Below, piece after piece: positions 20,761-62,385 of a stretch of 64,000 bases of DNA; the first letter of the stretch is position 1, and the number at the start of each line of letters is the position of its first letter. The position numbers and the translations under genes were made by a program. Where the stretch lies: positions 7,874,001-7,938,000 of the forward strand of contig CM102285.1 of assembly GCA_046563655.1 (NCBI GenBank). The letters are read 5' to 3'. The notes beneath the pieces were generated by a model. It searched no databases and had not been told where the DNA came from. It was given only the letters and a program-made list of their open reading frames with translations. The DNA is from Yuukianura sp. NJ FZ-2021. Its lineage: Eukaryota.

Positions 20761-22114
20761 AAAAAAAAGTATACCAGGGAATAGTAATTTGAGAACTAAC
20801 ATTCTGAATGCGTTTTGGTTTATTTTGGACTGCAAAAGAAATTCATCGAGGAAGTTAGTACATAGTACCTTTTGCTTATTTGTTTTTCGTTGGAAATGGT
20901 AAGCGTTAGACGCAAGTGCTAATTTGCCGCCTCAGATCCACCACCCCATGTTGTGGCGCCCGAAGGCCATTTCTTGTTTTCTGGCACTCAGCGCCACAAA
21001 ATTCAGAGGTTTCTTTTTTTCCCTCGAAATTCCGGCGTCTCTCTTTTGGCGTCTCTCAAAATTTTGCTTTGAAAAAAAGTTCAAAATTTTGAAAAAAGCA
21101 AAATTTTGAAAAAAGTTCAAAATTTTGAAAAAATAACACAATCTGAACAATTTATGGAAGGATAGCCGCTTTTGTGAAAAACGGTAAATTTTTATTTTTG
21201 TGGACCTCTTTTTTTTTGCTAGCCATCATAATTCTGCATTTCCAGGAGGCCACCTTTAGCTTGTGAGGAACAGTAGGTGTGTAAGTGTCTATAAGTTTAC
21301 ATGATGAAAAAGTGAAATGGCCCACTCCTATATAGAAATGACCAAGTGTCAACTATGTTTACATGTTGATACAGTATCAGTTACAGTTACATTGTACAAC
21401 TGCACATTGGCGTATGAGATTGAGATAGGGATTAGTTGGTGAAAAGCAAAACTTAACCTCTTGAACCCTGAATTATTTTCCTGGTGTTTGTTTTTCCGCC
21501 CTCTTTTAATTTCTATTGGTTACCAGGGCTGACTGAATTTAAAAATTCTTACGATCCGAGGGCGACGCCATTTTTTTTTGTGGGTAGACGTAGGTAGCCG
21601 GATTTATGCGTCGAAGTTATCGCGAACAATTAACCGAAACTTAAGTACTTAATGCAACATATATTAGATACTGGATTGATTTTTAGAAAAATTTCGAATT
21701 TATTTGTGCAATTATGCTGTACTCACAAGCAAGTTACCAAAATTCTGTATTCCTTTGGGGATTAATTACCCAGCCCTGGAAGTTTGGCTTCTGTATGAAA
21801 TAGTTTGAAACATGAAGTGGCTCCACTGACGCAAAGGAATTTCCTGCAACGATCGCACCGAAAACTTGTAGTCTTCCGTATTTTCTTACGCTTACAGTAG
21901 GTGCAGTCGGACTTTCTCTTTTCTTGTTTTTGATTGACAGATTGAGTCGGGAAATGCTGCCCGATAAGTCTGTCCGTCTGTACCGTATTTGAGGGTCTTC
22001 CACGACGTCGATCTGTGCTTCGATACTTTTCAAAAATTTCTTTCAAAATCTCTTCTAGAAAATCTTTCTGTCTGCACTTTGAGCGTGGATGCAATATCTT
22101 GTAGGCTCGAAAGC

Positions 22115-22530
22115 TGTTGAGTTTAGAGGTCAAAACTTGACCTTTTCTCATATAAAGTTAGCTGACAGGTTAACTCAACCACTGATTCTCACATCTGAAT
22201 TACGATGACAAGTTGAGCTGAGGGGGAACCAAATATGACACTTCTGGTCAAAGTTATTACATAGGGGACCATCAGAACCTTTCTAGTTGCATTTGTCTTG
22301 AAGCTTCCAGAATATTCTGGAAGCTTCCCGAAAATTCTAAGCCAGTTAACAAAAGGACCCGGGAGTCCGGAAAGTCAGTTAGTCTTTTTCAAGTCTCTCT
22401 CTAGGAAACTGTCTTAATTAAAACTTAAGATCCTTTTTCTGAAGTTTCTTTTGACCAAATAAAAATCAGCAACATTGCTTAAAAAGATCCATCAATAACA
22501 AAATTAAAAAGGCGTTTAATTTTGACAACA
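22115..22530 (+). repeat. 5' LTR of copia element
   Basis: TGTTGAG...GACAACA; differs from the 3' LTR at 2 positions by manual comparison. Confidence 0.97.
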
Positions 22531-22534
22531 ACTT

Positions 22535-22546
22535 TGGTAGCAGAGG
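22535..22546 (+). promoter_or_regulatory. Primer-binding site, tRNA-iMet 3' end
   Basis: TGGTAGCAGAGG 4 nt after the LTR, complementary to the ...CCUCUGCUACCA 3' end of initiator Met tRNA. Confidence 0.85.
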
Positions 22547-22749
22547 GAGGTTCTGCGTTGCTGAAAGTGAGTTTGGCAAAAGTGAAAGTTGAAGTTAAAG
22601 TCTGTAAACTTTGGACAATAACTTGACTTTGAAAAGTAAATTCGGTAAAAGCAATCAGTTAAGGAATACTACCGTTAGTTTCTTCTAGTGGACTTGATCT
22701 TGACTTTTGGACAAACATTTTTTGAACACAAGTGAAAGTAAATTACAAC

Positions 22750-25700
22750 ATGTCTATCAGCAGTGCTCGCCCATTGTTTGACACTAAACACGTGGCAAAG
22801 TTGGACGGAACGAATTACAGCCGATGGAAAATGCAAATGACGTTGATTCTGAAGGCAGTGAAGTTGTGGGATGTGGCTTCAGGAACAGTCGTTCGTCCAG
22901 AGTCTGACGAAAACGGAGGTCAGGCGGCATGGGATGAAAAGGATGTTCAAGCACAAGCAATAATCGTGCCTACACTGAACGCAAGTCAGATGACGCATAT
23001 TGTTGGCTGTAAAACAGCAAAGGAGGTTCTGGACAAGCTGAGTGACATCAACTCCGACTCAAGTACAATCAACCGTCAACATACCTTGAGCAGCTTTTTC
23101 AATTTTAAGGTCAGTAATAAGCAAAACTTAGTTGAGGCTTACACGGAGATGGAGGAAATTTGGAGAAATTTAAAAGAAATCGGTGTTAACATGGAGGAAG
23201 ATACAGTTGTGACTAAAATTGTCTCGTCACTTCCTGAGCCACGTTATACGGCTCTGAAAAGGGCGTGGGACTCTGTACCAGCTGAGTCTCAGACAATGAG
23301 CATTCTCTTTGCTCGGTTGAAAAAGGAGCAAATTGACCAAACGAACATAGAATCAGCAGGAACTTCCAGAGAAGAAAGGAGCCGTGCTTTCAAGGCACTC
23401 TCTGAACAGGGAAAAAGGGGGAGAGAAAGTAGCCCCACCAAGGAACGGAAGAAGGGCTTCTCTTCAAAGAAATCTGGTTGTTTCTTGTGCAAATCGGAAG
23501 ATCACTGGAAACGTGACTGTCCGAAGCTGAGACAAGGAAACTCGGAGGCTTCCTCAGGAGAATCTCAGCAAAACACAAGGCCTTTCTCCAAGAAGTCCCA
23601 CCATGGGCAGGGGAAAGGGAGAGGTGGTTCTCGAGGGCGGAAGGAGAAAGAAGCTTCAAGGAATGGCTTCCTTGGACAACGGAAAGAAGGTGAAAAGTCT
23701 GGAGATGGAGAAAGTGACTTTCCCCATGCCAAGGCTTTTGTTGGTCAAGATCGTAGAAGGAAGAAAAGTGGTTCGCCAGGGCCTGGACAGGCTAGCGAAC
23801 CTTGGCCAATACGCCAGGAGGACACCTGGTATGCTGACTCTGGAGCGTCAAACCATATCTGTGGTTCCAAAGATTGGTTTGTGGATTACAAAGATTTTCA
23901 GAATCCAGAGAAAGTTGACCAACTAAACTCTACCGCCGTTGATGCCCTTGGAGAAGGAACTGTTCAGTTACTTGCACTTACTGACGGTACATGGCAATAC
24001 AAAACACTCAAGAATGTTTTGTTTATTCCTGGAGCTGTTAATCTCCTCTCAGAACTCCAGATGACTCACCTCGGATACAAGATTGAAAGAGACAGCGAAG
24101 GAGCTCGTTTTTCGCACAAACAAGGTCCTGGACCTACATGCCATGTGAGCAAAGGTATGTACGTCATGAACTTTCTCCCGGTGAAAGTTCAGCCAAAAGC
24201 ACTTCTGGCTTTCAAACAAGTCAACTTGGATGTTTGGCACCGCCGTCTCGCTCACATCAACACTGAATACATTCAGGCCAGCGTTAGACGCGGAGCTGTC
24301 TACGGAATTCCACCGGAGCAGGTCAAAGGTCAACTCCGGGAAACATGTGAAAATTGTCAATTCGGTAAACAACCCAGGAAGACTTTCAACTCAGTTCCAA
24401 AAAGAAATTCGGAACCAGGAACTGGAACCCACATGGATTTATCTGGAAAAATGAACGTCGTGTCACTGGGAGGAGCCAGCTACTTTCTCCTTCTAATTGA
24501 CGATGCAACTAACTTTCGCACTGTTTACTTTCTGGAGAGAAAGTCGGAAGCTGCAGAAGCGATCAAGGGATACATTCATTTCATGGAGAGGCAAACCGGA
24601 AACAGGATGAAGTGGGTGAGGAGTGACAACGGAGGTGAATTTGTGAATTCAACCTTGAACAAATTTTTTGAAGAAAATGGAATCATCCACGAAACTTCAG
24701 CAGCCTATTGTCCAGAAATGAATGGGAGAGTGGAGAGATCCATGAGAACATTGAAAGATACTTCAAGGGCGATGCTCCAGACTTACTCCACTCCAGATTT
24801 TCTATGGGGGGAAGCCGTTGCAACTTCTGTCTACATTCACAATCGCACCTTAAGTCGCATCTCACCGGAGCAAACGCCATTTCAGAAAATCATGGGGAGG
24901 CGACCAAACCTCGGAAATGTTCGAGTCTTCGGATGTAAAGCTTATGCCCACATTCCAGAAGCGAAACGTACAGTCTGGACACCAAAGTCCAGAAAAATGT
25001 ACTTGGTGGGTTATGATGGTGTCTGCGAGAAAAAATTTAGACTTTTTGATCCAGACAGCGCCTCCATAGTCATTGCAACTAATGTTGTTTTTGAGGAGAA
25101 GGAACCGGAAGTGAAAATTACGGAAGTGGTTGAGGAGGAGTCTGGAGAAAGTGGAGATGAAGAAAATCGTCAGTCCAGTGAGAAGAAAGAAAAACTACTG
25201 GAGAAAGAAGATGACAATGCCGAAAAGCATAACTGCCAGGATGAAGAAAATGTAGCTGGATCCTCACTTTCTCCAAAAAGTTGGAAAGTTCAACGCACGG
25301 ATGATTTGAAATTGACCATTTCAACTACTGCTGGAGATTATATTGCACAGATTCCAGCACACGCTCTGGAGCGATACAATTTCCGGCCAAGAGAAGGAAT
25401 TAAAATTCCTTCCAGATATCATGCAAATGTTGCTCGACTGGAGATCCTGGAACCGAACAATTATGAAGAAGCTCTCGCTTCGCCGCAAAAGTTAGAGTGG
25501 ATCAGAGCAATGGAAGATGAGATTAACAGTCTGGAGAAAAACAAAACCTGGAGTCTGGTTAAATGGTCTCCAGAGAAAAGAGTTCTGGACAATCGTTGGG
25601 TCTTCGCACTGAAGAGAAAGCCAGATGGAGAAATCGATCGTTACAAAGCTCGTTTAGTTTGCCGTGGATTTTGGCAGCGTCCTGGAGTGGACTTTCACGA

Positions 25701-27699
25701 TACTTATGCTTCAGTTGCTAGATACGAATCTGTTAGGATCGTTCTTGCAGTTGCCAGTGCATGGAACTACAAGATTATTCAATTCGACGTAAAGACCGCC
25801 TTTCTCCACGGAGATCTAAAAGAAACATTGTTTATGACACAGCCACATGGATTTGAAAAGGGAAAGTCGCTGATTTGTCACCTTCAGAAGTCAATCTATG
25901 GTCTCAAGCAGTCTCCGCTGATGTGGTTTGAAAAACTGAAGAAAGCACTGCAAAGTCTTGGTTTTCTCCAGCTGGAGAGTGAGCCATCAGTATTTCAAAT
26001 GGACACCGAACCTGGAAAAATTTTCATGTTGATTTACGTTGATGACGGCCTAGCTCTTGGCCCAAGACTGGAAGACCTGGAGAAAGTCGTCAGAGAATTA
26101 AACAACAAATTCCCACTGACTTTCTCCAAACCCTCAGTGTTCATTGGATTGGAACTAAACAACGGAGAAGATGGGAGCTGGAACTTGGCACAAACTGGAC
26201 AAATCAAGAAGATATTGAGGAACTTTCACCTCGAAGAAAGTAAGCCTGTCAACGTCCCCATGCAACCCAACACTACTCTACAGGTACTGGCTGGAGAAAC
26301 TGGAGGTATACCGTTCCGGGAATTGATTGGCAGTCTACTGTTTGTTGCAAGATGCACGAGACCTGACATTGCTTTTGCAGTGTCTAAACTCTCACAACAC
26401 TTGACTGGATACGACGAAAGCCACTGGAAGATGGCCAAAAACGTGGCACGTTACCTCAAGGGATCCATGGAGCTACGTCTTCCTTCCAGTCCCAGAACAA
26501 ACAAAATCACTGTAGCTGGATACTGCGACTCGGACTTTGCTGGATGTCAAAGTTCCAGGAGGTCAACCTCTGGATATGTCTTTTTTATAAATGACTGCCC
26601 GGTAAGCTGGATGAGTCAGAAACAAAACACAATCGCATTATCCAGTTGTGAAGCCGAATACGTGTCGTTAGCTGCTGCAGCGAAGGAAGCTGTCTGGATT
26701 CGGAGATTTGTGGAAGAATTGGGAATCAAAATGACAAATCCAACGCCAATTTACGTGGACAATCAATCTGCCATTAAGTTGACCCAAAACCACCAGTTTC
26801 ATAAGAATACGAAGCATATCGAACTGAGATATCACTTCACAAGAAACTTAATTGAAGAGAAACAAGTGGAGGTCACCTACGTTCAAACCGAACATCAGAA
26901 GGCAGACATATTGACTAAACCTTTGAATCGCGGGAGATTTGAATTTTGTCGCTCAATGCTTGGATTGAAGACTCAGGGAGAGCCTAATGTTAAGGCTCTA
27001 GTGGCAATTCGCTCGGAAAAAGAAGGAGGGAAGACTCTTCAGAACAGGGACCCACCGAAGGCACAGAATGGAAATTTTGAAAAAGAACAAAAAGCCATAA
27101 AGTCTGAAATTGACAAGGGTCAATTCAACCCAAAGAAAGAAAAAGGGCAAAACCGAAGAAACAGAAACCCTAAATGGAGTGTGACTACCCAAGTTTTTGA
27201 AAACTCAAAATTTGGGAAGTGGAACAAGGTTAAAGGTCAAAGCGGAAAAAGTGGACACTCAAACCATCCTTACATTGAGGTCCTTCGTCCACAAGAAAAA
27301 AGATTTTACTCAAGGGCAGCTCCACCAAACTCAAACTTTTTGAGAAGGAACCTTGTCAATTCTGGTCCACGGAAACAGGAGCCACCGTGGAACCAACATG
27401 CACATAAAAACGGCAAAAGAAAAAGGAAAGAAACGGACTTTGGAAACCCAAATCATTTCTTGAAAAGGACAAAGGGAAAGTGTTTTGGTGGGAACGATGA
27501 CTTTCTCCATGAACAAAGAAAGACTTCAAACAATTGGACATTCAAAAATCTTTCTCTCATGTTCACTGCTGGATTTCTGATGATGATATTTTTTGGACTT
27601 ATTCATGGAGCTTCCGGTGATTTCAAGTGGCTTCTCCAGTTCTATGGAAGAAAAGTGACACTCAAGTCACCAAAGGCTCAAATCAAGTGCATTTGCTGA
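22750..27699 (+). CDS. Copia Gag-Pol polyprotein (gag, zinc knuckle, PR, GAG-pre-integrase, IN, RT, RNase H) with basic C-terminal extension and hydrophobic signal-like segment
   Basis: KLDGTNYSRWK; CFLCKSEDHWKRDC; WYADSGAS; WHRRLAH..CENC; HMDL/RSDNGGEF/NGRVER; QFDVKTAFLHG, YGLKQS, YVDD; YCDSD, EAEY, DNQSA, ADILTK; uninterrupted ORF. Confidence 0.96.
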   Translation: MSISSARPLFDTKHVAKLDGTNYSRWKMQMTLILKAVKLWDVASGTVVRPESDENGGQAAWDEKDVQAQAIIVPTLNASQMTHIVGCKTAKEVLDKLSDINSDSSTINRQHTLSSFFNFKVSNKQNLVEAYTEMEEIWRNLKEIGVNMEEDTVVTKIVSSLPEPRYTALKRAWDSVPAESQTMSILFARLKKEQIDQTNIESAGTSREERSRAFKALSEQGKRGRESSPTKERKKGFSSKKSGCFLCKSEDHWKRDCPKLRQGNSEASSGESQQNTRPFSKKSHHGQGKGRGGSRGRKEKEASRNGFLGQRKEGEKSGDGESDFPHAKAFVGQDRRRKKSGSPGPGQASEPWPIRQEDTWYADSGASNHICGSKDWFVDYKDFQNPEKVDQLNSTAVDALGEGTVQLLALTDGTWQYKTLKNVLFIPGAVNLLSELQMTHLGYKIERDSEGARFSHKQGPGPTCHVSKGMYVMNFLPVKVQPKALLAFKQVNLDVWHRRLAHINTEYIQASVRRGAVYGIPPEQVKGQLRETCENCQFGKQPRKTFNSVPKRNSEPGTGTHMDLSGKMNVVSLGGASYFLLLIDDATNFRTVYFLERKSEAAEAIKGYIHFMERQTGNRMKWVRSDNGGEFVNSTLNKFFEENGIIHETSAAYCPEMNGRVERSMRTLKDTSRAMLQTYSTPDFLWGEAVATSVYIHNRTLSRISPEQTPFQKIMGRRPNLGNVRVFGCKAYAHIPEAKRTVWTPKSRKMYLVGYDGVCEKKFRLFDPDSASIVIATNVVFEEKEPEVKITEVVEEESGESGDEENRQSSEKKEKLLEKEDDNAEKHNCQDEENVAGSSLSPKSWKVQRTDDLKLTISTTAGDYIAQIPAHALERYNFRPREGIKIPSRYHANVARLEILEPNNYEEALASPQKLEWIRAMEDEINSLEKNKTWSLVKWSPEKRVLDNRWVFALKRKPDGEIDRYKARLVCRGFWQRPGVDFHDTYASVARYESVRIVLAVASAWNYKIIQFDVKTAFLHGDLKETLFMTQPHGFEKGKSLICHLQKSIYGLKQSPLMWFEKLKKALQSLGFLQLESEPSVFQMDTEPGKIFMLIYVDDGLALGPRLEDLEKVVRELNNKFPLTFSKPSVFIGLELNNGEDGSWNLAQTGQIKKILRNFHLEESKPVNVPMQPNTTLQVLAGETGGIPFRELIGSLLFVARCTRPDIAFAVSKLSQHLTGYDESHWKMAKNVARYLKGSMELRLPSSPRTNKITVAGYCDSDFAGCQSSRRSTSGYVFFINDCPVSWMSQKQNTIALSSCEAEYVSLAAAAKEAVWIRRFVEELGIKMTNPTPIYVDNQSAIKLTQNHQFHKNTKHIELRYHFTRNLIEEKQVEVTYVQTEHQKADILTKPLNRGRFEFCRSMLGLKTQGEPNVKALVAIRSEKEGGKTLQNRDPPKAQNGNFEKEQKAIKSEIDKGQFNPKKEKGQNRRNRNPKWSVTTQVFENSKFGKWNKVKGQSGKSGHSNHPYIEVLRPQEKRFYSRAAPPNSNFLRRNLVNSGPRKQEPPWNQHAHKNGKRKRKETDFGNPNHFLKRTKGKCFGGNDDFLHEQRKTSNNWTFKNLSLMFTAGFLMMIFFGLIHGASGDFKWLLQFYGRKVTLKSPKAQIKCIC

Positions 27700-29153
27700 T
27701 TAAGTTCACCTCTCCATGTGAAATGCTGGACATCAACAGCGTCCACCAGGATAATGTTCAAATGGCCAAGGAAAGATGCGAGGAGATTTATAGCAAACTT
27801 TTTACCTCAGAAATTCTAAAAATGTGTCCAACAGAAGAAACAACAGAAATTCATCACCGTCACAAAAGATTCATATTGACCGGAATCATCCTCAGTACGC
27901 TTGTCATTTCGCTGATTACAAGCATTGGACTGGGGACTGCTGCCGTCATTACTTCTGCTGGAAACAAGGTGACACTGACTGAACTTGGAAATTTGGCACA
28001 GGAACACGCAAAGAAACTGGAGGAAGTCGAAAAACGCTTGAATATCCATAGGAGAGCATTGGAGGAGTTAAAACAATTCACGGAGAAGCTTGCTGGAGAT
28101 TTCCTGGAGTCTAAGGAGAAGCAAGTAGACACAACCTTTTTGATTTCATCAATCACTGGAAGGCTTTTGATTGGAAATCAAATTCTGAAGGAGACTAATC
28201 GTCAGTGGCACACGAAAAGAAAGTTGTTCGTACCATTTCTGGACTATTTGAATTTTTCACTCCCATGTGGAAGTTCATGCCCACTGGATCTCGGAACTCC
28301 AAAGTCATGTCACATGACCTATGACAAGATGGCCATGCAAATGCGTTTCGAAGTTCCAATTTTGGATCAAAATTTGAAAGTAGTGAAAGCTGACGCTTTC
28401 TCCTTAATGCACAAGACCAAAAACCAAACTTGTGAAATCAAATCCATTGGTCCGAAGAAAGCAATTGTGTCACTAAACGAAGACTGCGTATACGGAGCCA
28501 ACTTTAAAGAACCAGCCGATGACATCCTCATCATCGCTCCAGACGCTGGATGTAGTACTTCTGGACAACTTCCTGGAATGACCAAACACTTCACTGTGGA
28601 GAAATGCTTGCCCACTCACCCTGGAGATGAGAAGGATTTTGTCCAGCTCAAACAACAAGGAGAAAACAACTACATTTACTGTTACGGAAACCAAATTACA
28701 ATCGGGGGAAAGACAACAAATTGTCCAGATCACGTTTTCCCTATTCCCAAGGAAGTCAGCATAAAAATCAATGACTACTTGTACGAGGGTTTAATCTTCG
28801 AGGGAACACACATCCAGGGACAGGACCGGATTTTCACCTCAAAAGCAAACTGGCACTTAGGTCACAAGCTAAACATGACCAATCTGCTAGAACTTCATGG
28901 GCTTCTAGATGAAGACAAGAAGCTAGAAGAAAATATGGAGAAAATGAAAATCACCCATGAAGCCTACTTTACAGAAAATCCATGGACAGGAATTGTAATT
29001 GGATTCCTAATGACGTCAATGATCGCGATTTGTATTGCACTTGGTATCTGTTACTACAGAGCTCGGAAGGAAAGAGTTCCGATTATCAAAATCACTGCTG
29101 CAAAACTTCAGGATGCTGTCAGTGAAAGCAAGAAAGAAACGGAAGAAGACTGA
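27559..29153 (+). CDS. Env-like class I membrane-fusion glycoprotein (signal segment in pol frame 27559-27621, body in ORF 27627-29153)
   Basis: MFTAGFLMMIFFGLIHGASG; RHKR|FILTGIILSTLVISLITSIGLGTAAVI; heptad LTELGNLAQEHAKKLEEVEKRLNIHRRALEELKQFTEKL; Cys-rich ectodomain with NFS/NQT/NMT sequons; TM WTGIVIGFLMTSMIAICIALGICYY; short cytoplasmic tail. Confidence 0.85.
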
Positions 29154-29375
29154 GGAACAAGATTCCAACGAGAAAAATTTAAAAGAAAAACAGAATTATT
29201 AGACTAATTCTATTTTTGTATAGATAGTTACTTCTCTACTGTAAGATATGGATTTGGGAGAGGTTAACTTACAATTAATTAGAATTAAGTTTTATTTTTG
29301 GAATAACTGTCTGTTCATCCTCTTTACAAATCTAAAACGTTGAAAGTAGGAATAACTCAGGAAAAGTCAATTTTT

Positions 29376-29384
29376 GAGGGAGAG
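29376..29384 (+). promoter_or_regulatory. Polypurine tract
   Basis: GAGGGAGAG immediately before the 3' LTR. Confidence 0.85.
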
Positions 29385-29800
29385 TGTTGAGTTTAGAGGT
29401 CAAAACTTGACCTTTTCTCATATAAAGTTAGCTGACAGGTTAACTCAACCACTGATTCTCACATCTGAATTACGATGACAAGTTGAGCTGAGGGGGAACC
29501 AAATATGACACTTCTGGTCAAAGTTATTACATAGGGGACCCTCAGAACCTTTCTAGTTGCATTTGTCTTGAAGCTTCCAGAATATTCTGGAAGCTTCCCG
29601 AAAATTCTAAGCCAGTTAACAAAAGGACCCGGGAGTCCGGAAAGTCAGTTAGTCTTTTTCAAGTCTCTCTCTAGGAAACTCTCTTAATTAAAACTTAAGA
29701 TCCTTTTTCTGAAGTTTCTTTTGACCAAATAAAAATCAGCAACATTGCTTAAAAAGATCCATCAATAACAAAATTAAAAAGGCGTTTAATTTTGACAACA
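29385..29800 (+). repeat. 3' LTR of copia element
   Basis: Direct repeat of 22115-22530. Confidence 0.97.
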
Positions 29801-30239
29801 AAAGCTGTTGTACAAAGTGTAATCCCACAGATGAAAGAAGGTCTTGCGATACCATTTGAGGGTCTTCCGTTTGCTTTGGAGTGGCCGCATCACTTTGTCG
29901 ACGTCATCAACCCCGCCCATCTTAGAATTGTAGACAAGTACACTTGTTGGTTTCATTCGAGTGTTGTTTGGATTCAATGATGGGGCAAGCTTCATCTCGT
30001 GAGGAACAAATGTACTGATCATGCAGACTTCACGTCGATCTTTCCACCTAAATAAATATAAAGTAAATTGGACTTAGTAATTTGTTTGGTTCAGAATTTG
30101 TTTGGAAGTAACTTATTATTAATTATAAGTGATCCACTAACCGCTCAATTAGGATCCCCCATTTCGTAAAGCTTCTGATGTCACCAAGCGGCTGTGTCCA
30201 TAAGTGTCCGAGGAACTAAAAATCTGAGGGTGTAAAGCG

Positions 30240-46050: not shown

Positions 46051-46165
46051 ATTCTAAAAGAAAGTAGTCCGTATTGTGAATAAATGAAGCTTGAAGTCGC
46101 AATGTTAACAGGTAATATTGTGTGACACCGCGAGCATGGCTCGTTTGTGACCTCAGTCCGCCGCA

Positions 46166-47444: not shown

Positions 47445-47462
47445 GGTGTCTGAAAGACCATA

Positions 47463-50640: not shown

Positions 50641-50664
50641 ACACTCCGTCATGAACTAATTTGA

Positions 50665-50900: not shown

Positions 50901-51350
50901 TTGAAATTTTCCGTTCTCTGACTAGCCCCCATTCTTTGGCTTCGGTCCAAAAATTTTCATAAATTGTTTTGTTCGAATTTGTTTTTTTCCTTTTTGTCGC
51001 CGGTGACCCATCGACGACGTTAATGTGGCCTTCGTCCACGATGACCATTGCAGTAGCTAGAGTGACTTTATGGGAAGACGTAATGTTTATGACTGAGATG
51101 CAAAACACCTTGTTACACCTACTTAAATACTAAAGCCATAGCCATGCTCCTGTAGCAAAACAAAAAACTTTTACTTTCCAACTTTCATTAGCATGAGCCT
51201 GTGTGTTCTTATGGAAGAAATAAACAGTGCAACTTTTCCAATTTTGGTAGCATGGACTGAATTTTGTGTAAATGTGCTTCGTTTGTTCCTGAACGAAACA
51301 GACGACGCTGACAAGCCGATTGGAGAGGACTATCCCAAAATACGCTCTAC

Positions 51351-53421: not shown

Positions 53422-53790
53422 TTATTCCCTTTCGATGTGGCATAAGCTGACCATCCAAGTTGGAATCGTTTGGTTCAAACAAAAACAGCTGTTTCCAAGC
53501 AAAAAGTCGTCCCTGGAGATCCCGTTGCCAAGGGCACAGTTAGATCCACTCAATGCTTGAAAGATTGATTGATAGGCCTTCAAGTACTGCTTATTACTGG
53601 CGTCAAACTCGAGCCGCTGAATGCTGAATCCAGCTTCTTCAAAATTAATAGAAATGCACGAAAGGTCGTGATGTCCAAAATTAAGGCAGGATTTGTTCAA
53701 GGCTCCAGTGTAGCGTCTATGCTGTATGTATGCTGTAGCGTCCAGTAGTGCCAAAACAATATAGTTTGGAACTCGGCTGGCGAAATTTAC
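53422..53790 (-). pseudogene. Polinton/adintovirus major capsid protein fragment
   Basis: RVPNYIVLALL...YTGA...LNFGHHDL...YLKAYQSIF...GNGISRDDFLLGN fits the C-terminal jelly-roll pattern of Polinton MCP. Confidence 0.7.
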
Positions 53791-53859
53791 GTTTAGAATA
53801 GTCTACGCATAAAGCAATTCGGTGTGCCATGTAATGAACCGAAATTAAATTGGATTTCA

Positions 53860-54280
53860 TTCAATTCGCTCCGTCATTGACAAAGACAACAAACTTCTTT
53901 TTAAAGTAGTCCGTAAACAGCACCCGTCAGCTGCGACGGCTTCCATTATAGTCTTGATCATAGCGGCAGATGATTCTCCTTCTGTTAGTTCTAGTAACTT
54001 GTAAAATATGACATTGGGCGATTTTTCTCGACAGTTGGTACATACATAATCAAGTACGGCCCGTTGTGCGAGTCTATGGTAGAGTCCACGATCGAGCTGA
54101 AAGGATTACGTTCTGCCGCAATAAATTCCACCAACATTTTGTGCATTTCGTGGCTAATGTGCGCTGCGATTTCTTGCGATGCTTTGATATTAACGTAGTA
54201 ATTTCTCTATTGGTCTTAACTTCAGTGTACATAAGTTTGAGCATGTTTATTGTAGCTTCTTAGTAACTGGCGAGGGTAGT
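53860..54280 (-). pseudogene. hAT transposase fragment (ZNF862/KIAA1586-like)
   Basis: IAAHISHEMHK...PFSSIVDSTID...YLIMYV...KLLEL...FVNDGA with frameshifts. Confidence 0.7.
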
Positions 54281-57102
54281 TTCAAACGCCTCTGCAAAAG
54301 CAATAAATTCGTTCTAGAAATTTAATTCCGCCAAGTGCACCACATTTTGTAAGCCGCAAGGTGGCCATCATCGTCAAGGCAATGATCCGGTCATCGTCAA
54401 GGCAATGATCCGATATAATTTTTATGTTCCTCTCCTTTCTATCGGGCAACCATGCAACACGAAACCTTCTTCCATCGTTATGTTTTTTGATTTTGATTGA
54501 TTTATTGCTCCTTACGGGCCCACAGCCCATGAGGCTAAAATGGTTGAATATTAGTATTACATGTTCCGCTAAGTTAATTAATATCTTATGTACAGAAATT
54601 TAAATTTTTTGTTAAGTTTGTAACTGTTTATATTTGGGGGAATTGATTTTCGAATTGTATGAATTAGTAGTACTATAGTATTTATAATTAACAGAATGTA
54701 TTTATTTTGGAATATACTAGCCTATGCTTAATCTATTCTGAATTTATAATCCAATGGTTTCGTTTGGCTATTCCTTACCCTCTCTACGGCCCTTTAAACA
54801 TTTAAATACAAGTCCTCTTTCGTACTCCTCGATTGCTGCTCTACCGAGTTCTTTTATGTTTCAACTGTGTTCATTTAGGAATGAACTTTTAAAGAAGGAA
54901 TTCTGACAAAAACCAGAACGGAAAATCCGAATAAATCAGGGCTTTTAACCCTTAGTTTAATTAACGTTAATTAGAGGTGAACAAATTAGCTAATTTACGG
55001 AGGTCGATAGGTCAGGAAACTAGAAAGAGGCATGATACCGTACAGAACTAGACCTAAATCGACTCTGAAGTAGAGACAAAAAGAGACAAAAGACAGAGTT
55101 GAACTAACTGAGTAGTTAACTTTTGGATGTTGCAATGTGAAGTACGGCTAATGCGCATGACACAAAGAGGAAAATTTAAACCAAAAATAGGGTCTAAAAC
55201 TAACTGTAAATTTAACCAAAAGAGGGGTTTAAGAATCTAGAAAAATGAGGAATTGAAGCTGTCAATTCCACAAACATTCGGTGGCCTTGGTGGATTGAAG
55301 AATCCACCAAAATCCAACTGTAGTTGAATTGACAAGTGAAAAGGAGAAATGAATGTTTGTGAAAATGAAGCTAAAATGGAACTTAGTTTTAGAAGTGGTG
55401 ATAGATATTATTTTAACTCAAAATTAACTTTACTTTACTCGAAGTTGAAAGTGAAACGAAAATCTTAAAAATAATAATGAATGCTGTAGGAAACAGTGAT
55501 GAGAGTCCGACGAGAGGACGTCAAATGGTAGTGGGACGCACGGGCGGTGTCCAGATGAGGAGAACGAGGGAACTGGAATCTGCAATGGGAATTCCGGTGG
55601 AAGTTGAGGTGAGGTCAAACCGTCCAGTTGAAGTCCTGGAGAAAGCACACGAGCGGTGACATTCGGTTTGAGTGGCGGAAACGGTCTTGAGCCTGATGGT
55701 GAGGTTGGTCTGGTGTCCTATGGCGACAAAAAGAGGCGGAGGCCCATCTTGGTCATGAATTGTGTGAAATTGTTTCTTGGGTGTTCCAATCTTCATCCAA
55801 GTAAGTAGAAGTGAAGAGTTGTCAGCTGCCCCAAGAAGCGAGTCCAGTAATGGGACGAATGAACACACGGGCGGTGTTCAGTAGACGGAATTGATCCGAA
55901 TGAGACTGGAATCCTAGAGGCGGAAATCCAGTTGCGGTGAACGGAGCTCTAACTTTTCAGTCGATGGACTGGCGAAAGCACTCTGACGGTGACATCCGCG
56001 GTATCGAGACGTTCGAGAGATATGAGTTGAGTAGCGGAGCTCTAACTTTTCAGTCGACGGGGGGAGTGGTGGACGCACACTGATGGTGATGTTACGTGGC
56101 CCTTTCACGTAATAAATGGTGAACATTCGCAAAAAGATAAGTTGAGAGTAGAAGCTTTATTCAGAAAACTTAATGCTAAGGGAAGGTTAACAAATTGGGG
56201 TTACCTGGATCGTTAAAGGAAAACCACACGCGAGCCAGAAAATCAAGGGGCTGCTGAGTGGAAGTTGAAGTTCAAGCCAAGCTCCGAACCACAACTGAAG
56301 TGTCCAGTGCTGGACCAACGCTTTTTAAGGGCCAGTGCGGCCGGAAAGGAAAGTCAACTTGACGCTATCCTAACCTACCCTAAGACAGAAAAGGCACTTG
56401 GCAACTATGGGTCAGTTACGTAACATAAGAAAAAAAAGGAAATCGACAAAAAGGAAAAGGGACAACTAAAAAGAGGTGGAATTGAGAATCTAACTTTGGG
56501 GACATCTTGACCCACCTTGTCTTCAAGGGTCCAGTTTCATTCCGGATTCCCTTTGAGTAAGATCTTAAGTAACTACAGTGAAAGTGTTCTAAGCATAACA
56601 TTTCTCCCCTTATCAAAAAAATTTGTCCCATAAATTCAAAGTAATGAAAGAATTTTACATGAAATTATAATTGTAAAATTATAGGGAGAATTTATTAATA
56701 TGAATTAAATTGTTATTTGATTTTATATTGGATTTCGTTTTGTTTGAAATTTTCTTTTTGTTTTTTTAATTTTTGATTCTTATGTTTTATTAATGTTTAA
56801 GAAAATTATATATAAATTCAGAAATAATGTCTTTTGTTTTTTGATTTTTGTTTGGATTTTTGAGCATATGAAGGTCTTATATAGTCTTATATAATAATTA
56901 TAGTCTTTTGTTTCGGTTTTATACTTTGATGTTTATGATTTTTTTGTTTAAACTTAGCCTTTTTATGAGTTAGCCAAAAGGAACAATAATATATATTATT
57001 ATTAGTCTTAACAGAAGACAGTCTTATGTTTGGTTTTTTTTATCATTCTTTTGGTTTTTAGAGTAATTTATAATTATTATGGAATGATATTAACATTTGA
57101 AA

Positions 57103-58201
57103 TTACTGGCCAAAAAGGTATTTATCTCGTTGTTTTCTAGACATTTTGAAAACTTGTCTTTTTCTAAACTTAAGTTTTCTTTGTCTCACATAGTCTTTAC
57201 AAGGGATAGGTTCCTCAAACTGTACTAGTACAAAATTGGGAGTTACAATTTTGTTTTCTGGAAGGGGAATTGTGTTCTCTACTGGAGGGTCCTCTTCTTC
57301 CTCGTCACTGAGGTTAATTTCAGGGATGGTTTCGCTGATTTTGGAGAATCGCTGATGATATTCGGCAATTTCTTTCTCAGTTAAGATGTCTCTTCCCTCA
57401 TCCACATATGTTGACTCATCGAAGTAACGCTCATCCGAGTCAGAATCTGAAGAGTCCGAATCCGAGGATGAAGAATCGGAGTCGGATGATGATGAATCTG
57501 AATCTGAAGATGAAGTAGATGAAGAGGATGTATCCGAGTCGGATAGGTTAACCACGGGTGGGGTTGGTGGGGTTATTTTCTTACGTATGGGGGATACGGG
57601 TCTTTCAGTCACAATCATTTCTTCAATCATCTCGTGTAAGATGATGATGAATGTGATGATTTCTATATACTTGGACGGAAGGAAGAGTGGGAGAGGGTTG
57701 ACTTCCTGGGGAAACTTCGACATCCGCGTGGAATGTAATGGTGTTGGAGACTGGAGCCGAGGTTTGAAAAGGTGCCGTAGAAGCTGCAGGTTTCAGAAAG
57801 TCGTCCATCGATAAGCGAAGAAATTCTGCTGCTTGAGGTTTGGATTGCAAAGGATGTGGTGCGTGGCTTAAATTATAGGAATACTGTGGTTTCGGTATGT
57901 CTTTTTGATTTAGAAAATAAGTGAAAGGGAAAACTTTCTCTTTTTTATAACATAGTAATTTTTTTCCTGAAGGATCTCTCTTATTACTATAAATATAACT
58001 AAGGGGAGGAGCTAACCTAACTTCCTCCTTAATCTCTTCATGAGAAGTAGTATCATAGTAAAACAACGGACAATTATCCAGATCCATAGTATCTAAGTTA
58101 TTTTGTTTATTCTTATTTATCCTATTCCTAGTGAGTAGATTAATTCTATCTATTTTTTCCTTTGACATTCTCTCCCACTTATTCATAAATTGACCAGACA
58201 T
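57103..58201 (-). pseudogene. Accessory ORF between env and 3' LTR (frameshifted; Pro-rich, poly-Ser/Asp, basic tail)
   Basis: Overlapping ORFs 58201-57623 and 57723-57103. Confidence 0.5.
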
Positions 58202-58599
58202 ACTGGTGCTAGACGTTATGTCTCTGATAACTCTTTGTCTGACCTTGCTTCTTTCCTGTCTCGCTATGGCACGTTGTTGTTTAATTTGAGAGTTTTTTCA
58301 TCTCCTGTTTTTCATTTTCTAAAAACAAAACTTACTTGTTAGTTTTAAAAATTTCTATTCAAAAAGCAATTGTTCAAGAGAATGATAGACCAAAAACCCA
58401 CAACAGAATAACAGAGAAAGCAGAAGTAATTTGCAAAGATATGTTTAAAATGGATTTCCGTTGTATTTGAAAATTGCCGTCTTTTTACTTTATCTTTGTG
58501 GTTTTCAATTTTGAATTCGTTTAAGCTCCTCAATGGATATTTGGGAGTCAAATTTGTAGGTTTGGTGTATTCGTGTTCGACCTTATACTCAACATTTGT

Positions 58600-60666
58600 T
58601 CAAACTTTTTGAGAAGGAGCCGTAGGAAGACGACGACGGTTGATAGGCCGTCGAAGTTTCGGTTTGCGTAAATGGCGAGTCAACATAACAATTTCTCGTT
58701 CGGTCAATGGAAGAGACTCGTTTTCAGAGTCGCTAAAATTATTTCGTTTTTTGGGCTTTTCCTTTTTTGAAATTCCAATTTTGTTAAAAATGATGCGCCA
58801 AATCTTGACAAAAGTAGAACGATTTTTGTAAACGTATTTCAAGAGTAACATCAGTAAGAAAATAGCCAAACTCAACATGCAAATTGTAGCCAAAACATTT
58901 TGAAAAGGAGTCAAGATGAATTCTCGTAAAAGTGTAATGGTTTTCTTTTCATTTGGACCAAAATTCCCATTTCTATTTTTCAAAATGTTGTCAATTTTGT
59001 TTTGGTGGGAAAGATCTTTCAAAATTTGCGCAATCGTTTCTGCTCCACCTAGTTCATCTACAGAATACACTCCTGGAGAAGAAAATGATAAGTCGGGCAT
59101 ATTCTCTAATTTTGAGTCATCATAATTTGCAGGCAAAACTGTTAAATTTTCAATGACAGTTCTGTTGGTCAAGTGAACAGTCATTCCTGCGTAATCAAAA
59201 TAAAAATTTGGAGCCGGGCATTTAGTATTAGTTGGCTCCATAACTATTTCATGGTTTAATCCTGTCAAGTACCCTTCCTTTTTATCTACTCCATGAAAGA
59301 ACATTATGGGCCATTCGAGATAACGTCCGGTTTGAGGCAAAAGCATATACGTATCAATTTCGTCGCATTTATAAATGGATAAAATATCTCCGTTAGTCTT
59401 TGCTCTCAATGCTGGGTTTTTAAGGAGAGTGCGAACCAAAACACTAGGCTGTCCACGTCCAGACGCGGCCAAAACGCGTAACAATTCTAAATGATTCTGA
59501 TGGGCTTTACAGGTATCTCGATGAACTGTCTGAATTCAAAATGATAGGAAGTTGCCACAATTTGATAGAGATAGAGTAATTTACTGTTTAATTCCGCATT
59601 GGTAACTAATTTAGGTGTTTCCGGCAATTCTTGCTTAGGTAAAATTAAATCTGGTAAAAAAGCTAGTTCTTTAGTAGAAAATCCGCTCGTAGACTTGAGT
59701 CCAAGTTCAGTGTCATTTAAATCTAGTTCGCCATCATTTAATTCAATTTCAAGATCAGTTTCATTTAGAGAATTCTGCTCAATCTCTCTTTTATAGCGAG
59801 TTGGTCTGTTAATTTTTCCTTGGTCAAATTTGTGAAAGAAATGCCTAATTCCCATGAATTGTTTTTTTCAGTGAAAATTATGCCTTGGGCAGACGTTCCA
59901 AAAGTTAATCCACATTTTTTCACAGTAATAATTTTCGTTATAGCCAATTCAAGAGTTGGGCAAGAGAGTCTCCCATCCGTGTAAAGACAAGTGGCTGAGT
60001 CACCTTCTTTCAAGCGACAGAATTTGACTTCTCCTGGCAACCAAACCAAAATTCCATTTTCAGTTTCGCAACTGCCTTGTCGATACTTACATTGACCTAA
60101 AGTTTTTGCAGTAGTAATAATAGTGTCATCTGTATTGGAAACAGAAAGAGTAAGAGCCACCATAAAGTAATTAGTCACTGTTTTATAATCTGAGCCTAAC
60201 CAGTAATAATCAAAATTCAAAACTTCATTTGTACCAAAAAATCCATCAGAAATTCTGTCCAATTTTTGTTGACTTGATACCGGACTCGCATGTGTTCTAA
60301 CCATGAGACGACAATGTTTTTTCAGTCACCGGAACTCTATATTTTAGGTAAAATTTGTCTTTTTTTGCCAAAGAAATGCCTATAAGTTTTAACCTCCTGA
60401 ACTTCCATGAAACACTCATAACCTTGAAAATTCTGCATGCTAATATCAGTCCAGAAAAGCGTTATATCAACCAATTTCGAAGGTTTTTCAGTTGCTACCA
60501 GTGGACATTTGATTGGCGGAGGCAAACGCCAAGGAATTCCTGCCGTGTACCCCCTACAATAGTACAAAACTTCAGATTTTGTATCAAGTTTTGTAAACAA
60601 TTGATACACTGGTGAATCTTGGGAAGTTGAAAAAGAAATAAAAATAAGTATCCACCAAATCTCCAT
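58600..60666 (-). pseudogene. Class III fusion glycoprotein env (gB/mononegavirus G-like), 3 frameshifts
   Basis: Signal MEIWWILIFISFSTS; YYC..W.LP..C; GYEC..YRHFFG and YYWLGS (bipartite fusion-loop-like); RPTRYKR furin site; ELNSKLLYLY helix; PSVLVRTLL...AKTNGDILSIYKC; TM VLATICMLSLAIFLLMLLLKYVY. Confidence 0.8.
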
Positions 60667-60932
60667 GTTAGAAGTCGAGAAAACAATGAAAAGAAAACCG
60701 AAATGGAAGAAAACAAATTAATACTATCTTAGTTTTTTCAATTAGATAATTAAAGGCTGCTTAAAATTAGTTTGATGTCTGAATCTTGATAAAATGCTAC
60801 GTAAAACTATTTTGATTCCTGAATCTTGCTTGAATTTTGATTTGACGGTTTGAAACTTGATTTCTGAAATATAACACACAAACAAACGATATCAAATTTA
60901 GTACTTTTTTAGAAAAATTTGTTGCTTTTAGT

Positions 60933-62385
60933 TTAACTCGTTACGTAATCTTTCATCCAAAATGGTTTTTTCCGATTTCTCATCCTTTTTTCAAAATTTT
61001 CTTTTCTGCAAATTGCTTTCATTTTTCCTTTAGGAGTAAACGTATTAGGAGATTCGTCACCCGAGGAATCAGAATCAATTAAAATTAATTCATTTTCCAC
61101 GTACAACTTTTTAATTTTAGTAAAGGAATTTTCGATGTCAATTAAAGAAACTGATTGTAAGCCAATATTATATAAAATTGTTTGCAATAGTTTAGTAAAG
61201 GATGGATACAAATAAATTTTTAATTTCGCAAGAGCAACAAATTTTAACAAAAAATCTACCAAATTTTTCCCAAAACACAATATTGTTTTAAAGTTAAGTG
61301 TTAATAGAATTTGCTCGATGTCGTTAAAGTCTATATTTTCAGAAAATTTAAAAATCGTTAATTTTTTTGGTTTTTTGAGTTGAAACATTTGAAAGCCTTT
61401 TGAAATTTTCAATCTTGCAAAATATTGAACAAGAAAATTGTCAGCGTTCAGTAATAGAATTGTGGGTTGGAGATCACTTTCGCAGTCTGTTTTTCTTAGT
61501 CGTTTTTTAGGACATGCTCCATTATAACCGCCAAAATGACCTATACAAAAGTTGTTCCTCTTGAAAAGATAAGCAACTTTTACTAGGACATTTTGGCGGT
61601 TGTAATGGAGCATGTTCTAGTCGAAAAAACGACAAAGAAAAACAGACTGCGAAAGTGATCTCCAACCGAATTGTGTTTATGTTATATTTAATTAGCAATT
61701 CATCAATCTTTTCCCATTCACATTCCATTAAAGTAGGAAAATAGAGAATTTCAAAAGAAGTGTAGCCAGTCTGAAATGGCGTGTGAACATCTGTTCTGAA
61801 ATTCTGCAAATTAGTTTTTACGGTCCTGAAAATTTTTTCTGGTGACTCTAAATCTTGTTTTAAAGAATCTAACGTAACATAGTAAGTTTCTGGTTCAAAA
61901 TCGGGTAGATCCCATGGCATAATTTTTCTCATCCTACCTGCATGCGCAGTAGAAAGTTTTCCTGTACTTAAACACTTGATTTTATATAATAAGTCATTTA
62001 CTTTCTTCAAAATTTCATAATTTCCTAAATAGTAAGGAATGAATTTTGGAGTTTGACCTTTCTTGGGTCTTTTTGGAAATTTTAGTTTAACTTTGTCACC
62101 AATTCGAAATTCAACTTCTTTCCGTCTTTGATCTTCTCTTTGTTTGTACCTCGCTTGCTCTTTCTCCAAAGATTCTTTAACTAATTTTCTAACAAATAAA
62201 ATATCCGAATTTGATCTGAAAGCTCCAGGTTGAGAAATTTCGTACGGAAAATTAGGCTCTCGATTGAAAACTACTCGATAAGGAGTCTGGTGAGTACTCT
62301 CTTGTTTAGAAGTATTATAGGCAAACTGTAATTGATCTAAATTTTCATCCCAATTATCATGCATTGTACTAACATAGTGTGAAAC
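60933..62385 (-). pseudogene. Gypsy integrase C-terminus with ~250-aa extra domain, split by a MITE
   Basis: NWDENLDQLQFAYNT..HQTPY; FRIGDKV..KFIPYYLGNYEI (GPY/F); tail RMRNRKKPFWMKDYV. Confidence 0.85.
61465..61667. mobile_element. 203-bp palindromic MITE with 8-bp TSD (GG termini, Merlin- or MULE-like)
   Basis: GAATTGTG|GGTTGGAGATCACTTTCGCAGTC...GACTGCGAAAGTGATCTCCAACC|GAATTGTG. Confidence 0.9.

Follow-up and report, generated by a model that had tools for sequence, protein, structure and literature searches.

Described one-strand clusters and the present locus

A piRNA cluster is defined by 24–31 nt 1U small RNAs that derive from one strand of a long precursor. Among the closest described loci, the flam-like clusters of Drosophila were predicted from TE strand bias alone and afterwards validated by small RNAs; in the excerpted text of PMC10643416 they extend over 227–1,085 kb, and Gypsy elements alone account for their bias. 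The flamenco-like EVE cluster 38 of Aedes aegypti measures about 143 kb and carries its elements on one coding strand, and the available part of PMC7161354 reports a continuous transcript, phased piRNAs, PIWI5/6 loading and a demonstrated Ci site. For Anopheles, the accessible portion of PMC13172572 reports somatic clusters that are uni-stranded or located in 3'UTRs, delimited with small-RNA sequencing and RNA FISH.

The locus described here is a block of fragments that begins at about 21.4 kb and reaches at least 62.4 kb (41 kb) of the window, the whole stretch of 64,000 nucleotides that was analysed; the window edge cuts the block, which probably extends past it. The block is an old accumulation of fragments of at least eight unrelated mobile-element or virus-like lineages, with coding strands almost all minus. 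Pieces of piggyBac, copia, Pao, gypsy with env, pPolB, a double-jelly-roll capsid, a PIF1-like helicase and a TIR element are each present once and are short, and self-blastn revealed hardly any family that recurs within the block. An exact look-up of 10 ORFs in a sequence collection found none of them.

As in flamenco and the flam-like loci, to the extent that the excerpt of PMC10643416 describes them, the TE fragments are dense, lie on one strand, include env-bearing gypsy-type elements and are accompanied by a flanking gene. In contrast to those loci, the bias spans DNA transposons, copia, Pao and Maverick-like pieces besides gypsy, and the locus is known from DNA anatomy alone. Its 41 kb before the window end, set against the 143–1,085 kb given for flam-like loci in the excerpted sources, counts against a common nature, with the block being cut by the window. 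With EVE cluster 38, as partly described in PMC7161354, the locus shares viral-derived and transposon fragments on the same coding strand, from which one antisense transcript would be expected, and glycoprotein-type viral pieces that adjoin LTR elements. Unlike that cluster, no Ci-type site stands out (10 Ci/GLI-type matches versus 8.8 expected, none near 21 kb). The geometry proposed here, downstream of a METTL1-like gene, is that of the 3'UTR-located clusters in the available part of PMC13172572, which differ in being delimited by RNA data and not by the make-up of the DNA.

On the likeliest of the readings considered, with a rough probability of 0.4, the block may be a unistrand piRNA cluster that is transcribed in the plus direction, away from the METTL1-like gene. 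To the observed fragment anatomy, strand bias, nesting order and position after a plus-strand gene, this reading would add plus-strand transcription, piRNA processing and selection. If true, the locus would be a further example of an already known type, the unistrand piRNA cluster.

Onset of the block and its left-hand pieces

The flanking host gene encodes a METTL1-like tRNA methyltransferase and is oriented into the block. Its last exons (19842..20757, plus strand) match Methyltransf_4 at 19842–20141 (1.6e-11, profile 17–73) and at 20395–20757 (1e-10, profile 109–171 of 173); the last exon ends at 20757 and the block starts about 0.7 kb past the stop codon. A location directly after a plus-strand gene would also suit a plus-strand transcription unit unrelated to piRNAs (the METTL1-like gene with a long 3' extension, a lncRNA or a long intron), from which selection removed sense insertions bringing splice and poly(A) signals. 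Antisense bias of transposons in introns is established, and such a unit would yield the same strand bias and age pattern as a piRNA cluster. In addition, the 1.36 kb past the stop codon contain neither AATAAA nor ATTAAA on the plus strand, a weak indication given an estimated expectation of about 1.8. However, the match to Methyltransf_4 extends to position 171 of the 173 in the profile with the stop next to it, which marks this exon as the last coding one, and plus-strand ORFs in 29.8–62.4 kb gave no family match in either the Pfam or the read-through scan. Inside the block, the AATAAA hexamer is moreover not depleted on the plus strand (31 vs 34), which is not what selection for unbroken sense transcription would lead one to expect. 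This explanation is considered improbable; the undepleted hexamers were also counted against the cluster reading.

The first piece of the block is a minus-strand piggyBac remnant, split in two by a young copia element. Its C-terminal part (21455..22114), whose end is close to a TTAA at about 21.45 kb, was recognised by reading of the sequence and by a zf-Tnp_2 match in ORF 21765–22157 (E 7.7e-4, under the curated cut-off). The end of the DDE transposase domain (29806..30073, minus strand) is located beyond the copia element, with a DDE_Tnp_1_7 match at 29789–30073 (4.8e-12, profile 263–349 of 349). The intervening Ty1/copia (22115..29800, plus strand) appears intact: its LTRs (22115–22531 and 29385–29801) are 99.5% identical over 417 nt and it is flanked on both sides by AAAGC, a 5-bp target duplication. 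Its gag-pol ORF, 1657 aa long from stop to stop, contains RVT_2 (2.6e-55), rve, gag and other domains and is overlapped by an env-like ORF (27621–29150).

To the right of piggyBac, a minus-strand ORF of 171 aa (31009..31521) had been called LINE ORF1 in an earlier note on this DNA; it gave no Pfam match at E<=5 and none in the read-through scan, and its PDB match was at chance level. An old, degraded copia RT and RNase H (33246..34585, minus strand), interrupted by a 121-nt tandem array at 33762–34176, was detected by tblastn with the pol of the copia within the window (E 3e-12 and 5.5e-9, 34–41% identity) and by RVT_2 in the read-through scan (1.7e-9). The adjacent minus-strand ORF of 120 aa (34655..35014), gag-like in appearance, continues in frame into the copia RT piece; the previous gag call found no backing in Pfam or PDB.

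Next, a 3-kb minus-strand TIR element outside known families (36445..39456) retains inverted repeats of about 280 nt (36445–36726 and 39166–39456, 89–99% identity), and its three internal ORFs with 120 aa or more all lie on the minus strand, with no Pfam match. It is followed by copy 1 of a repeat, here termed X (39514..40271, minus strand), which aligns with copy 2 (48764..50023, minus strand) at 76–91% identity by blastn. Copy 1 is gene-like, with an open ATG-to-stop ORF (39844–40245, 133 aa, no Pfam or PDB match) and an AATAAA-like end, and copy 2 is disrupted and about 480 nt longer. An LTR identity for repeat X was rejected in favour of a gene-like unit. A BEL/Pao pol fragment (40319..41152, minus strand) comes next, recognised by Peptidase_A17 (2.6e-15 at 40319–40597, 8e-5 at 40560–40715 and 7.1e-8 in the read-through scan), the matches together covering 40319–40766.

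Virus-like pieces and the gypsy element

A minus-strand ORF of 100 aa (42817..43116) is a lead only for an adenain/Ulp-type protease fragment: its best Atlas score (0.88) was to a Preplasmiviricota cluster, with Peptidase_C5/C48 clusters at 0.84–0.86; Pfam and PDB gave no support, and the earlier adenain call is weak. The extreme C-terminus of a protein-primed family-B DNA polymerase (pPolB) of the Maverick/Polinton type (about 130 aa; 50277..50722, minus strand) gave 4 phmmer matches among 1.84 billion representatives. A profile, A1, found 13 longer proteins. DNA_pol_B_2 was present on one of nine scanned proteins (P0013, 1.1e-21), and profile A1 aligns with residues 921–1053 of the 1054 of P0013 with a probability of 98.4%. 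By tblastn, the sole match of all 17 pPolB-related proteins in the window was 50277–50722.

The neighbouring piece (50652..51129, minus strand) was assigned to the N-terminal part of a PIF1/Helitron-type helicase from our own reading of a Walker A motif in the translations. AAA_30 (1.2e-3) and other P-loop families also matched, every score being under its cut-off, and the earlier PIF1 call is a weak lead. Further on, a fragment of a Maverick/Polinton-like double-jelly-roll major capsid protein (53425..53802, minus strand) reached Atlas scores of 0.95–0.96, with 16 of the 30 matches in clusters with PF21738 DJR-like_dom, and had no Pfam or PDB match. Minus-strand ORFs at 53994..54599 had been called hAT from resemblance by eye; neither the ORFs nor the read-through scan gave a Pfam match, and PDB lent the call no support. 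Four family calls of the earlier note remained without verification, which was counted against the cluster reading.

The pPolB, the double-jelly-roll capsid and possibly the adenain-type protease, on one strand within 11 kb, resemble a Maverick/Polinton. In contrast to such an element, the pPolB is reduced to about 130 aa and the capsid to 126 aa, with other elements between them, and the integrase, ATPase and terminal repeats of a Maverick/Polinton were not found. A single Maverick origin of the three is conceivable and could reduce the number of independent events.

The abutment of unrelated fragments, also pointed out before, was seen at two places: the end of pPolB adjoins the start of the PIF1-like piece at about 50.65–50.72 kb, and at about 34.6 kb the gag-like ORF and RVT_2 are found in one frame of the read-through translation. 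Like the diversity of lineages, this abutment was counted in favour of the cluster reading. Short unrelated pieces joined without spacer, one pair of them in a shared frame, and two copies of repeat X in the same orientation 9.2–9.75 kb apart would be accounted for by a mosaic of mechanistic origin, either head-to-tail chimeric cDNA formed by RT template switching or a composite unit spread or duplicated as a whole. Such a mosaic is nevertheless highly unlikely, given the classical DNA-level insertions with their own ends in the block: piggyBac ends at TTAA, the 3-kb element keeps both inverted repeats and the copia has both LTRs and its target duplication.

Between the protease-like ORF and repeat X copy 2 lies a minus-strand glycoprotein-like block (45126..48411) of three tandem units, in each of which a Pro-rich stretch comes after a Cys-rich domain. 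Frameshifts disrupt the block, and GC skew shows that its coding strand is rich in C. It was delineated by phmmer among window ORFs and no database homologues were found. Two segments, 46568–47200 and 45126–45569, are reciprocal best matches with the gypsy env ORF 59768–60325 (E 1.8e-4 and 6e-4 among 771 ORFs), and 47466–47900 matches 46169–46564 (E about 1e-3). Of the three glycoproteins listed previously, the minus orientation stands and their separateness does not, as they form one tandem-triplicated block.

A class-III-like glycoprotein (58603..60717, minus strand) represents the env of a gypsy-like endogenous retrovirus; it is spread over four ORFs with few breaks, has a membrane anchor at its C-terminus and matches Monjiviricetes_fusion at 58603–59535 (9.7e-7, 27.5 bits vs a cut-off of 27). 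Downstream of it are two overlapping long minus-strand ORFs of 229 and 224 aa (57106..58297), one with a Ser/Asp-rich stretch. The C-terminal part of a gypsy integrase (61525..62415, minus strand) matched SH3_Tf2-1 (2.4e-4) and Integrase_p58_C (1.3e-3), both under cut-off, and Pfam detected no rve in the minus-strand ORFs beyond 62415. The remainder of the gypsy pol is cut off by a further, nested element (62386..64000), which starts with TGT; its 318-aa ORF, open at the window end and without Pfam match, suggests a plus orientation. Env-carrying Ty3/gypsy elements with class III (gB/chuvirus-like) envelopes are described in the available part of PMC13524379 and, as in these, a gypsy integrase and a Monjiviricetes-type fusion glycoprotein occur together in the 57–62.4 kb segment; this segment differs in that the 3' half alone lies in the window, interrupted and frameshifted, with no LTRs seen.

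Strand bias, event counts and age order

The findings given above bear out the minus strand that the earlier note had assigned to piggyBac, the old copia, the TIR element, Pao, pPolB (C-terminus only), the capsid and the gypsy-env element. The strand bias itself is genuine. Between 29,802 and 62,385, the minus strand has 32 ORFs of 100 aa or more (5,125 aa) versus 9 on the plus strand (1,103 aa), with a minus excess in all five sub-blocks, and the gene-bearing control (1–21,400) has 10 minus versus 12 plus. In 14 of the 16 2-kb bins of the block, versus 5 of 10 in the control, no plus-strand ORF is as long as the longest one on the minus strand; both strands were handled alike in these symmetric tests. 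A Pfam scan of the full set of 222 window ORFs with 70 aa or more (E<=0.01) placed TE/viral families of 21.4–62.4 kb on five minus ORFs versus one plus ORF, that of the young copia, and matched read-through scans of 40.55–52.25 kb returned one family on the minus strand and none on the plus strand. The near-complete minus orientation proposed earlier thus persisted after annotation. Of its two plus-strand exceptions, the young copia is secured by its LTRs and 5-bp duplication, and the element at 62386 has its TGT start and open ORF, without homology support.

Independent events are fewer than fragments, and fewer than the earlier list implies, because the glycoprotein trio is one block and the gypsy integrase belongs with the env in a single element. 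Independent insertions amount to about 9–13 minus versus 2–3 plus (two-sided p 0.15 to 0.007): conservative counts give 9/11 or 9/12 minus (p 0.065 to 0.146), superfamilies with homology support alone 6 versus 1 (p 0.125), and inclusion of unknown-family ORF-bearing blocks 13/15 (p 0.007). The two lower counts and the merging of the trio would suit an ordinary transposon graveyard, in which the bias reflects chance and the non-independence of a few large elements, each leaving several same-strand pieces. The selection of the window out of a very large scan, poly(A) signals without strand asymmetry and the failure to find a promoter-like hallmark point the same way. Against it stand the separate bias in five of five sub-blocks and in 14 of 16 bins, the 13/15 count and the age order, as chance does not predict that the plus-strand elements should be the two youngest and nested; a mere graveyard is regarded as somewhat less likely than a unistrand cluster.

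As for the proposed unistrand cluster, its structural prerequisites hold up in the sequence: dense fragments of multiple superfamilies, near-complete minus orientation, env-bearing elements and a plus-strand gene upstream. Transcription of the plus strand, arriving from the METTL1 flank or from an LTR, would produce a long non-coding precursor and from it antisense piRNAs of the flamenco type; insertions landing antisense to the precursor would confer silencing and be retained, and sense insertions would be recent and still unfiltered. All of the old, degraded pieces have minus orientation, and the two elements of plus orientation are nested and form the youngest layer, so that the anatomy is in keeping with a unistrand piRNA cluster. 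Env sequences are among the antisense pieces, both in the gypsy element and as the triplicated glycoprotein block.

Strand orientation of the fragments

The block of transposon and virus-like fragments at 21.4–62.4 kb, downstream of a METTL1-like gene, revealed a pronounced excess of open frames on the minus strand. The tests of this bias were chosen to treat both strands alike, ORFs being taken from stop to stop (at least 100 aa) and the block being counted as 29,802–62,385, with a young Ty1/copia element near its start left out. The block holds 32 minus-strand ORFs (5,125 aa) versus 9 plus-strand ones (1,103 aa), and the gene-bearing stretch at 1–21,400, which served as control, holds 12 plus and 10 minus ORFs of this size. 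The minus excess is seen in all five sub-blocks, and of the 2-kb bins, 14 out of 16 in the block and 5 out of 10 in the control have their longest ORF on the minus strand. Among the 222 window ORFs of at least 70 aa, Pfam families of transposable element (TE) or viral origin (E ≤ 0.01) were matched in 21.4–62.4 kb by five ORFs of the minus strand and one of the plus strand. When 40.55–52.25 kb was scanned in read-through translation, with X in place of stops, the minus strand matched one family and the plus strand none. By ORFs, bins and Pfam families alike, the strand bias of TE and viral fragments described in the earlier note stands.

A binomial test, put forward in the same note and applied here to independent events, gave a minus direction under every count, with two-sided p-values of only 0.146 to 0.007, and significance hinges on the rule for counting such events. 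Superfamilies with homology support only are minus in 6/7 cases (p = 0.125), and merging everything that can be merged into one element leaves 9/11 or 9/12 (p = 0.065 or 0.146, respectively). An intermediate count gives 11/13 (p = 0.022), and counting also the ORF-bearing blocks of unknown family gives 13/15 (p = 0.007). Chance, together with the non-independence of the fragments, is a possible, if doubtful, explanation: the conservative event counts give p of 0.065–0.146 and, because the window was picked from a very large scan, these p-values alone do not dismiss it. Should small RNAs refute a piRNA cluster here, the case would warn against relying on the strand bias of TEs in a single 40-kb window, which is weak evidence by itself, since large elements inflate the count.

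Identity of the fragments

At least eight lineages are present as truncated pieces within 41 kb, together with two nested young insertions. A piggyBac remnant (minus) is split in two by the young copia, with its zinc finger at 21765–22157 (below cut-off) and its DDE part at 29789–30073 (DDE_Tnp_1_7, 4.8e-12). The RT/RNase H portion of an old copia (33246–34585, minus) was recognized by tblastn with the in-window copia pol (3e-12 and 5.5e-9) and by RVT_2 (1.7e-9); a 121-nt tandem array (33762–34176, 3.3 copies, 86% matches) interrupts this remnant. Next come two further minus-strand pieces, a 3-kb element (36445–39456) bounded by ~280-nt terminal inverted repeats (TIRs) and a Pao fragment (40319–41152). 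A mechanistic or composite origin of the block, by template switching or by duplication of a mosaic, appears very improbable, several of its members having their own transposon ends. Unrelated pieces do abut at two sites or more: at ~50.65–50.72 kb the end of a protein-primed DNA polymerase (pPolB) adjoins the start of a PIF1-like piece, and at ~34.6 kb a gag-like ORF continues into the copia RT piece without a change of frame.

From the list of minus-strand families proposed in the earlier note, piggyBac, the old copia, the TIR element, Pao, pPolB, capsid and gypsy-env were retained; PIF1 and adenain are weak, and the LINE ORF1, gag and hAT assignments received support from no tool applied to these ORFs. 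Pfam at E ≤ 5 returned no Peptidase_C5, DNA_pol_B_2, L1 ORF1 or hAT family for 33 chosen ORFs. In a separate Pfam scan, 150 short ORFs (35–69 aa, 29.7–42.8 kb, both strands) yielded a single match. A PDB sequence search with six ORFs (adenain-like, pPolB, capsid, ORF1-like, repeat X and env) gave chance-level matches or none, Rfam and tRNA scans found nothing, and an exact look-up of ten ATG-started ORFs in a sequence collection found none of them.

Repeat X designates two minus-strand copies (39514–40271 and 48764–50023), 76–91% identical, of a gene-like unit. In copy 1 a 133-aa ORF still runs from ATG to stop. Copy 2 is disrupted and has ~480 nt of extra sequence, which includes an acidic ORF of 121 aa. 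At the end of each copy stands an AATAAA-like signal. These direct repeats, at 39.5 and 48.8 kb, were also considered as the LTRs of one 10-kb element, a possibility rejected in view of the ORF and the AATAAA-like end of the unit.

The pPolB fragment (50277–50722, minus) was reached through a chain of profile searches. Its 106-aa ORF has four relatives among 1.84 billion representatives, and a profile built from them retrieved 13 longer proteins. One of the nine longer proteins scanned contains DNA_pol_B_2 (1.1e-21), and another of the 13 is annotated at its source as a DNA polymerase. The profile aligns to residues 921–1053 of the 1054-aa DNA_pol_B_2 protein, directly after the polymerase domain. 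With all 17 proteins, tblastn against the window gave no match besides 50277–50722; only the last ~130 aa, the extreme C-terminus, survive, and a single intact Maverick over 42–54 kb was rejected on this basis. Two further pieces are a double-jelly-roll capsid fragment (53425–53802, minus; score 0.95–0.96 in the Atlas protein-cluster search, 16/30 matches in PF21738 clusters) and an adenain-like ORF (42817–43116, minus; Atlas 0.88), which is a lead only. Around the polymerase C-terminus, the capsid fragment and this protease lead, no rve, ATPase or TIR pair was found, and these pieces fall short of a Maverick/Polinton element, in which pPolB, double-jelly-roll capsid, adenain protease, integrase and packaging ATPase lie between TIRs. 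The PIF1-like piece (50652–51129, minus) matches P-loop families below cut-off only (AAA_30, 1.2e-3), and its motif, as we read it, weakly suggests a helicase.

Towards the end of the block, a gypsy integrase C-terminus (61525–62415, minus; below cut-offs) is followed on the same strand by an env (60717–58603, minus; Monjiviricetes_fusion 9.7e-7, just above the curated cut-off). This succession of a gypsy pol piece and a viral fusion glycoprotein is that of an env-carrying, errantivirus-like Ty3/gypsy element. An LTR pair for this element is absent from the window, and instead of a complete gag-pol the pol is cut at ~62.4 kb. Between the integrase piece and the ORF that comes next there is a near-palindrome of 203 nt (61465–61667; 84% self-complementary, 44-nt arms at 98%). 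PMC13524379 describes gypsy elements with class III envelopes, the kind seen here at 57–62.4 kb, as widespread in invertebrates.

The three glycoproteins listed in the earlier note, at 45.1–48.4 kb, are better described as one block than as three events, given matches within the window. Three diverged tandem units are placed at 45126–48411 (minus), with a Cys-rich glycoprotein-like domain and a Pro-rich tail. Two of them are reciprocal best matches of the middle gypsy env ORF, with modest E-values (1.8e-4 and 6e-4 among 771 window ORFs), and the proline-rich stretches after two units resemble each other. The arrangement looks like a tandem triplication inside one insertion. No database relatives at E ≤ 0.001 were found for 46568–47200 (near lengths) or 47650–48411 (longer lengths). 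The composition of 45126–48411 is strongly skewed, with a GC content of 47% and a plus-strand GC skew between +0.19 and +0.27. Mosquito Pao-chuvirus glycoproteins are reportedly the subject of PMC7642597.

Plus-strand elements and age layers

The young copia (22115–29800, plus) sits inside the piggyBac remnant. Its LTRs share 99.5% identity over 417 nt, its 5-bp target duplication (AAAGC) is intact, and its gag-pol frame is 1657 aa long. A third ORF of 510 aa (27621–29150, plus) overlaps the end of pol. It shows a hydrophobic stretch after a basic RHKR site, predicted long helices and, at the C-terminus, a membrane anchor, features that make it a candidate F-like envelope carried by a copia element. 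This ORF matched no Pfam family, and its single-sequence AlphaFold2 model (pLDDT 36.6) was too poor for a fold search. The second plus-strand element begins with TGT at 62386, where it cuts the gypsy pol, and its orientation is read solely from its 318-aa open ORF.

Both plus-strand elements belong to the youngest layer, every old, degraded piece being on the minus strand. This pattern is predicted by time-dependent orientation filtering and, spotted after the fact, argues against the chance explanation.

A candidate piRNA cluster beside METTL1

The best-supported reading of the block is that of a flamenco-type unistrand piRNA cluster, which is plausible from DNA anatomy alone. The block would be transcribed on the plus strand, and antisense insertions would be kept because they feed a piRNA defence. 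The observation behind this proposal in the earlier note was largely right, and its interpretation as a cluster is plausible on anatomical grounds. The TE content is dense, fragmentary, nested and drawn from many families; most fragments lie on one strand, antisense to the presumed precursor; and antisense env sequence occurs in one gypsy-env element and one env-like block. Against cluster sizes of tens to hundreds of kb, at least 41 kb of the block are seen before it meets a nested element at the edge of the window. According to PMC10643416, the strand bias of TEs can serve to predict loci resembling flam, which were validated afterwards. In an Aedes locus of 143 kb, according to PMC7161354, viral and transposon pieces share one coding strand and one antisense transcript yields phased piRNAs; PMC13172572 describes uni-stranded somatic clusters in other insects, one of them inside the 3' UTR of a coding gene. 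A point against the piRNA reading is that the bias of the Drosophila flam-like loci is confined to gypsy (PMC10643416), whereas here piggyBac, copia, Pao, pPolB and capsid pieces are as biased as the env-bearing gypsy.

Further observations also count against it. The block shows no depletion of poly(A) hexamers on the plus strand (AATAAA 31 vs 34, ATTAAA 34 vs 31), matches to a Ci/GLI-type motif are at chance level (10 vs 8.8 expected), and only 41 kb are visible. The undepleted poly(A) signals, together with the lack of plus-strand exons, also speak against a plus-strand transcription unit that is no piRNA source and in which intron-like selection removes sense insertions, an explanation we regard as unlikely.

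The last exons of the METTL1-like methyltransferase (19842–20141 and 20395–20757, plus; Methyltransf_4) precede the block. The coding part ends at ~20.76 kb, since the Methyltransf_4 match extends to position 171 of the 173 in the profile, right after which the frame stops; the transposon block starts ~0.7 kb beyond. The 1.36 kb from the stop codon to the copia LTR (20758–22114) contain no AATAAA or ATTAAA on the plus strand, not a significant deficit against an estimated ~1.8 expected, so METTL1-like transcripts may run into the first transposon remnant. We give a probability of roughly 0.3 to a compact flamenco-like cluster in a non-model invertebrate that would be fed by this read-through and would hold an antisense memory of env-bearing retroviruses, Maverick/Polinton virus-like elements, Helitron-type helicases and cut-and-paste transposons. 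Such a cluster would act as a general one-strand trap, with an orientation filter on every mobile-DNA class and sense insertions in the youngest layer only. If confirmed by small RNAs, the locus would offer a unistrand cluster that is small, sequenced in full and not from one of the usual model insects, with datable layers and a piRNA memory against Maverick-type DNA viruses; a trap-and-filter model of cluster evolution would then be directly testable, because all old fragments lie in antisense and the two youngest insertions in sense orientation.

The window is eukaryotic, with ordinary host genes in its first 21 kb. Besides the METTL1-like gene, these include BTB-domain exons (7147–7461 and 10104–10700, minus) and a polynucleotide kinase 3'-phosphatase gene (16113–17522, minus). 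A 438-aa open frame (1406–2719, minus) matches no Pfam family at E ≤ 0.01. This host-gene part also contains two MITE-like inverted repeats, one at 119–977 with nested arms of 41–73 nt (80–100% complementary) and the other at 8429–9167 with 344-nt arms, 88% complementary and placed 51 nt apart.
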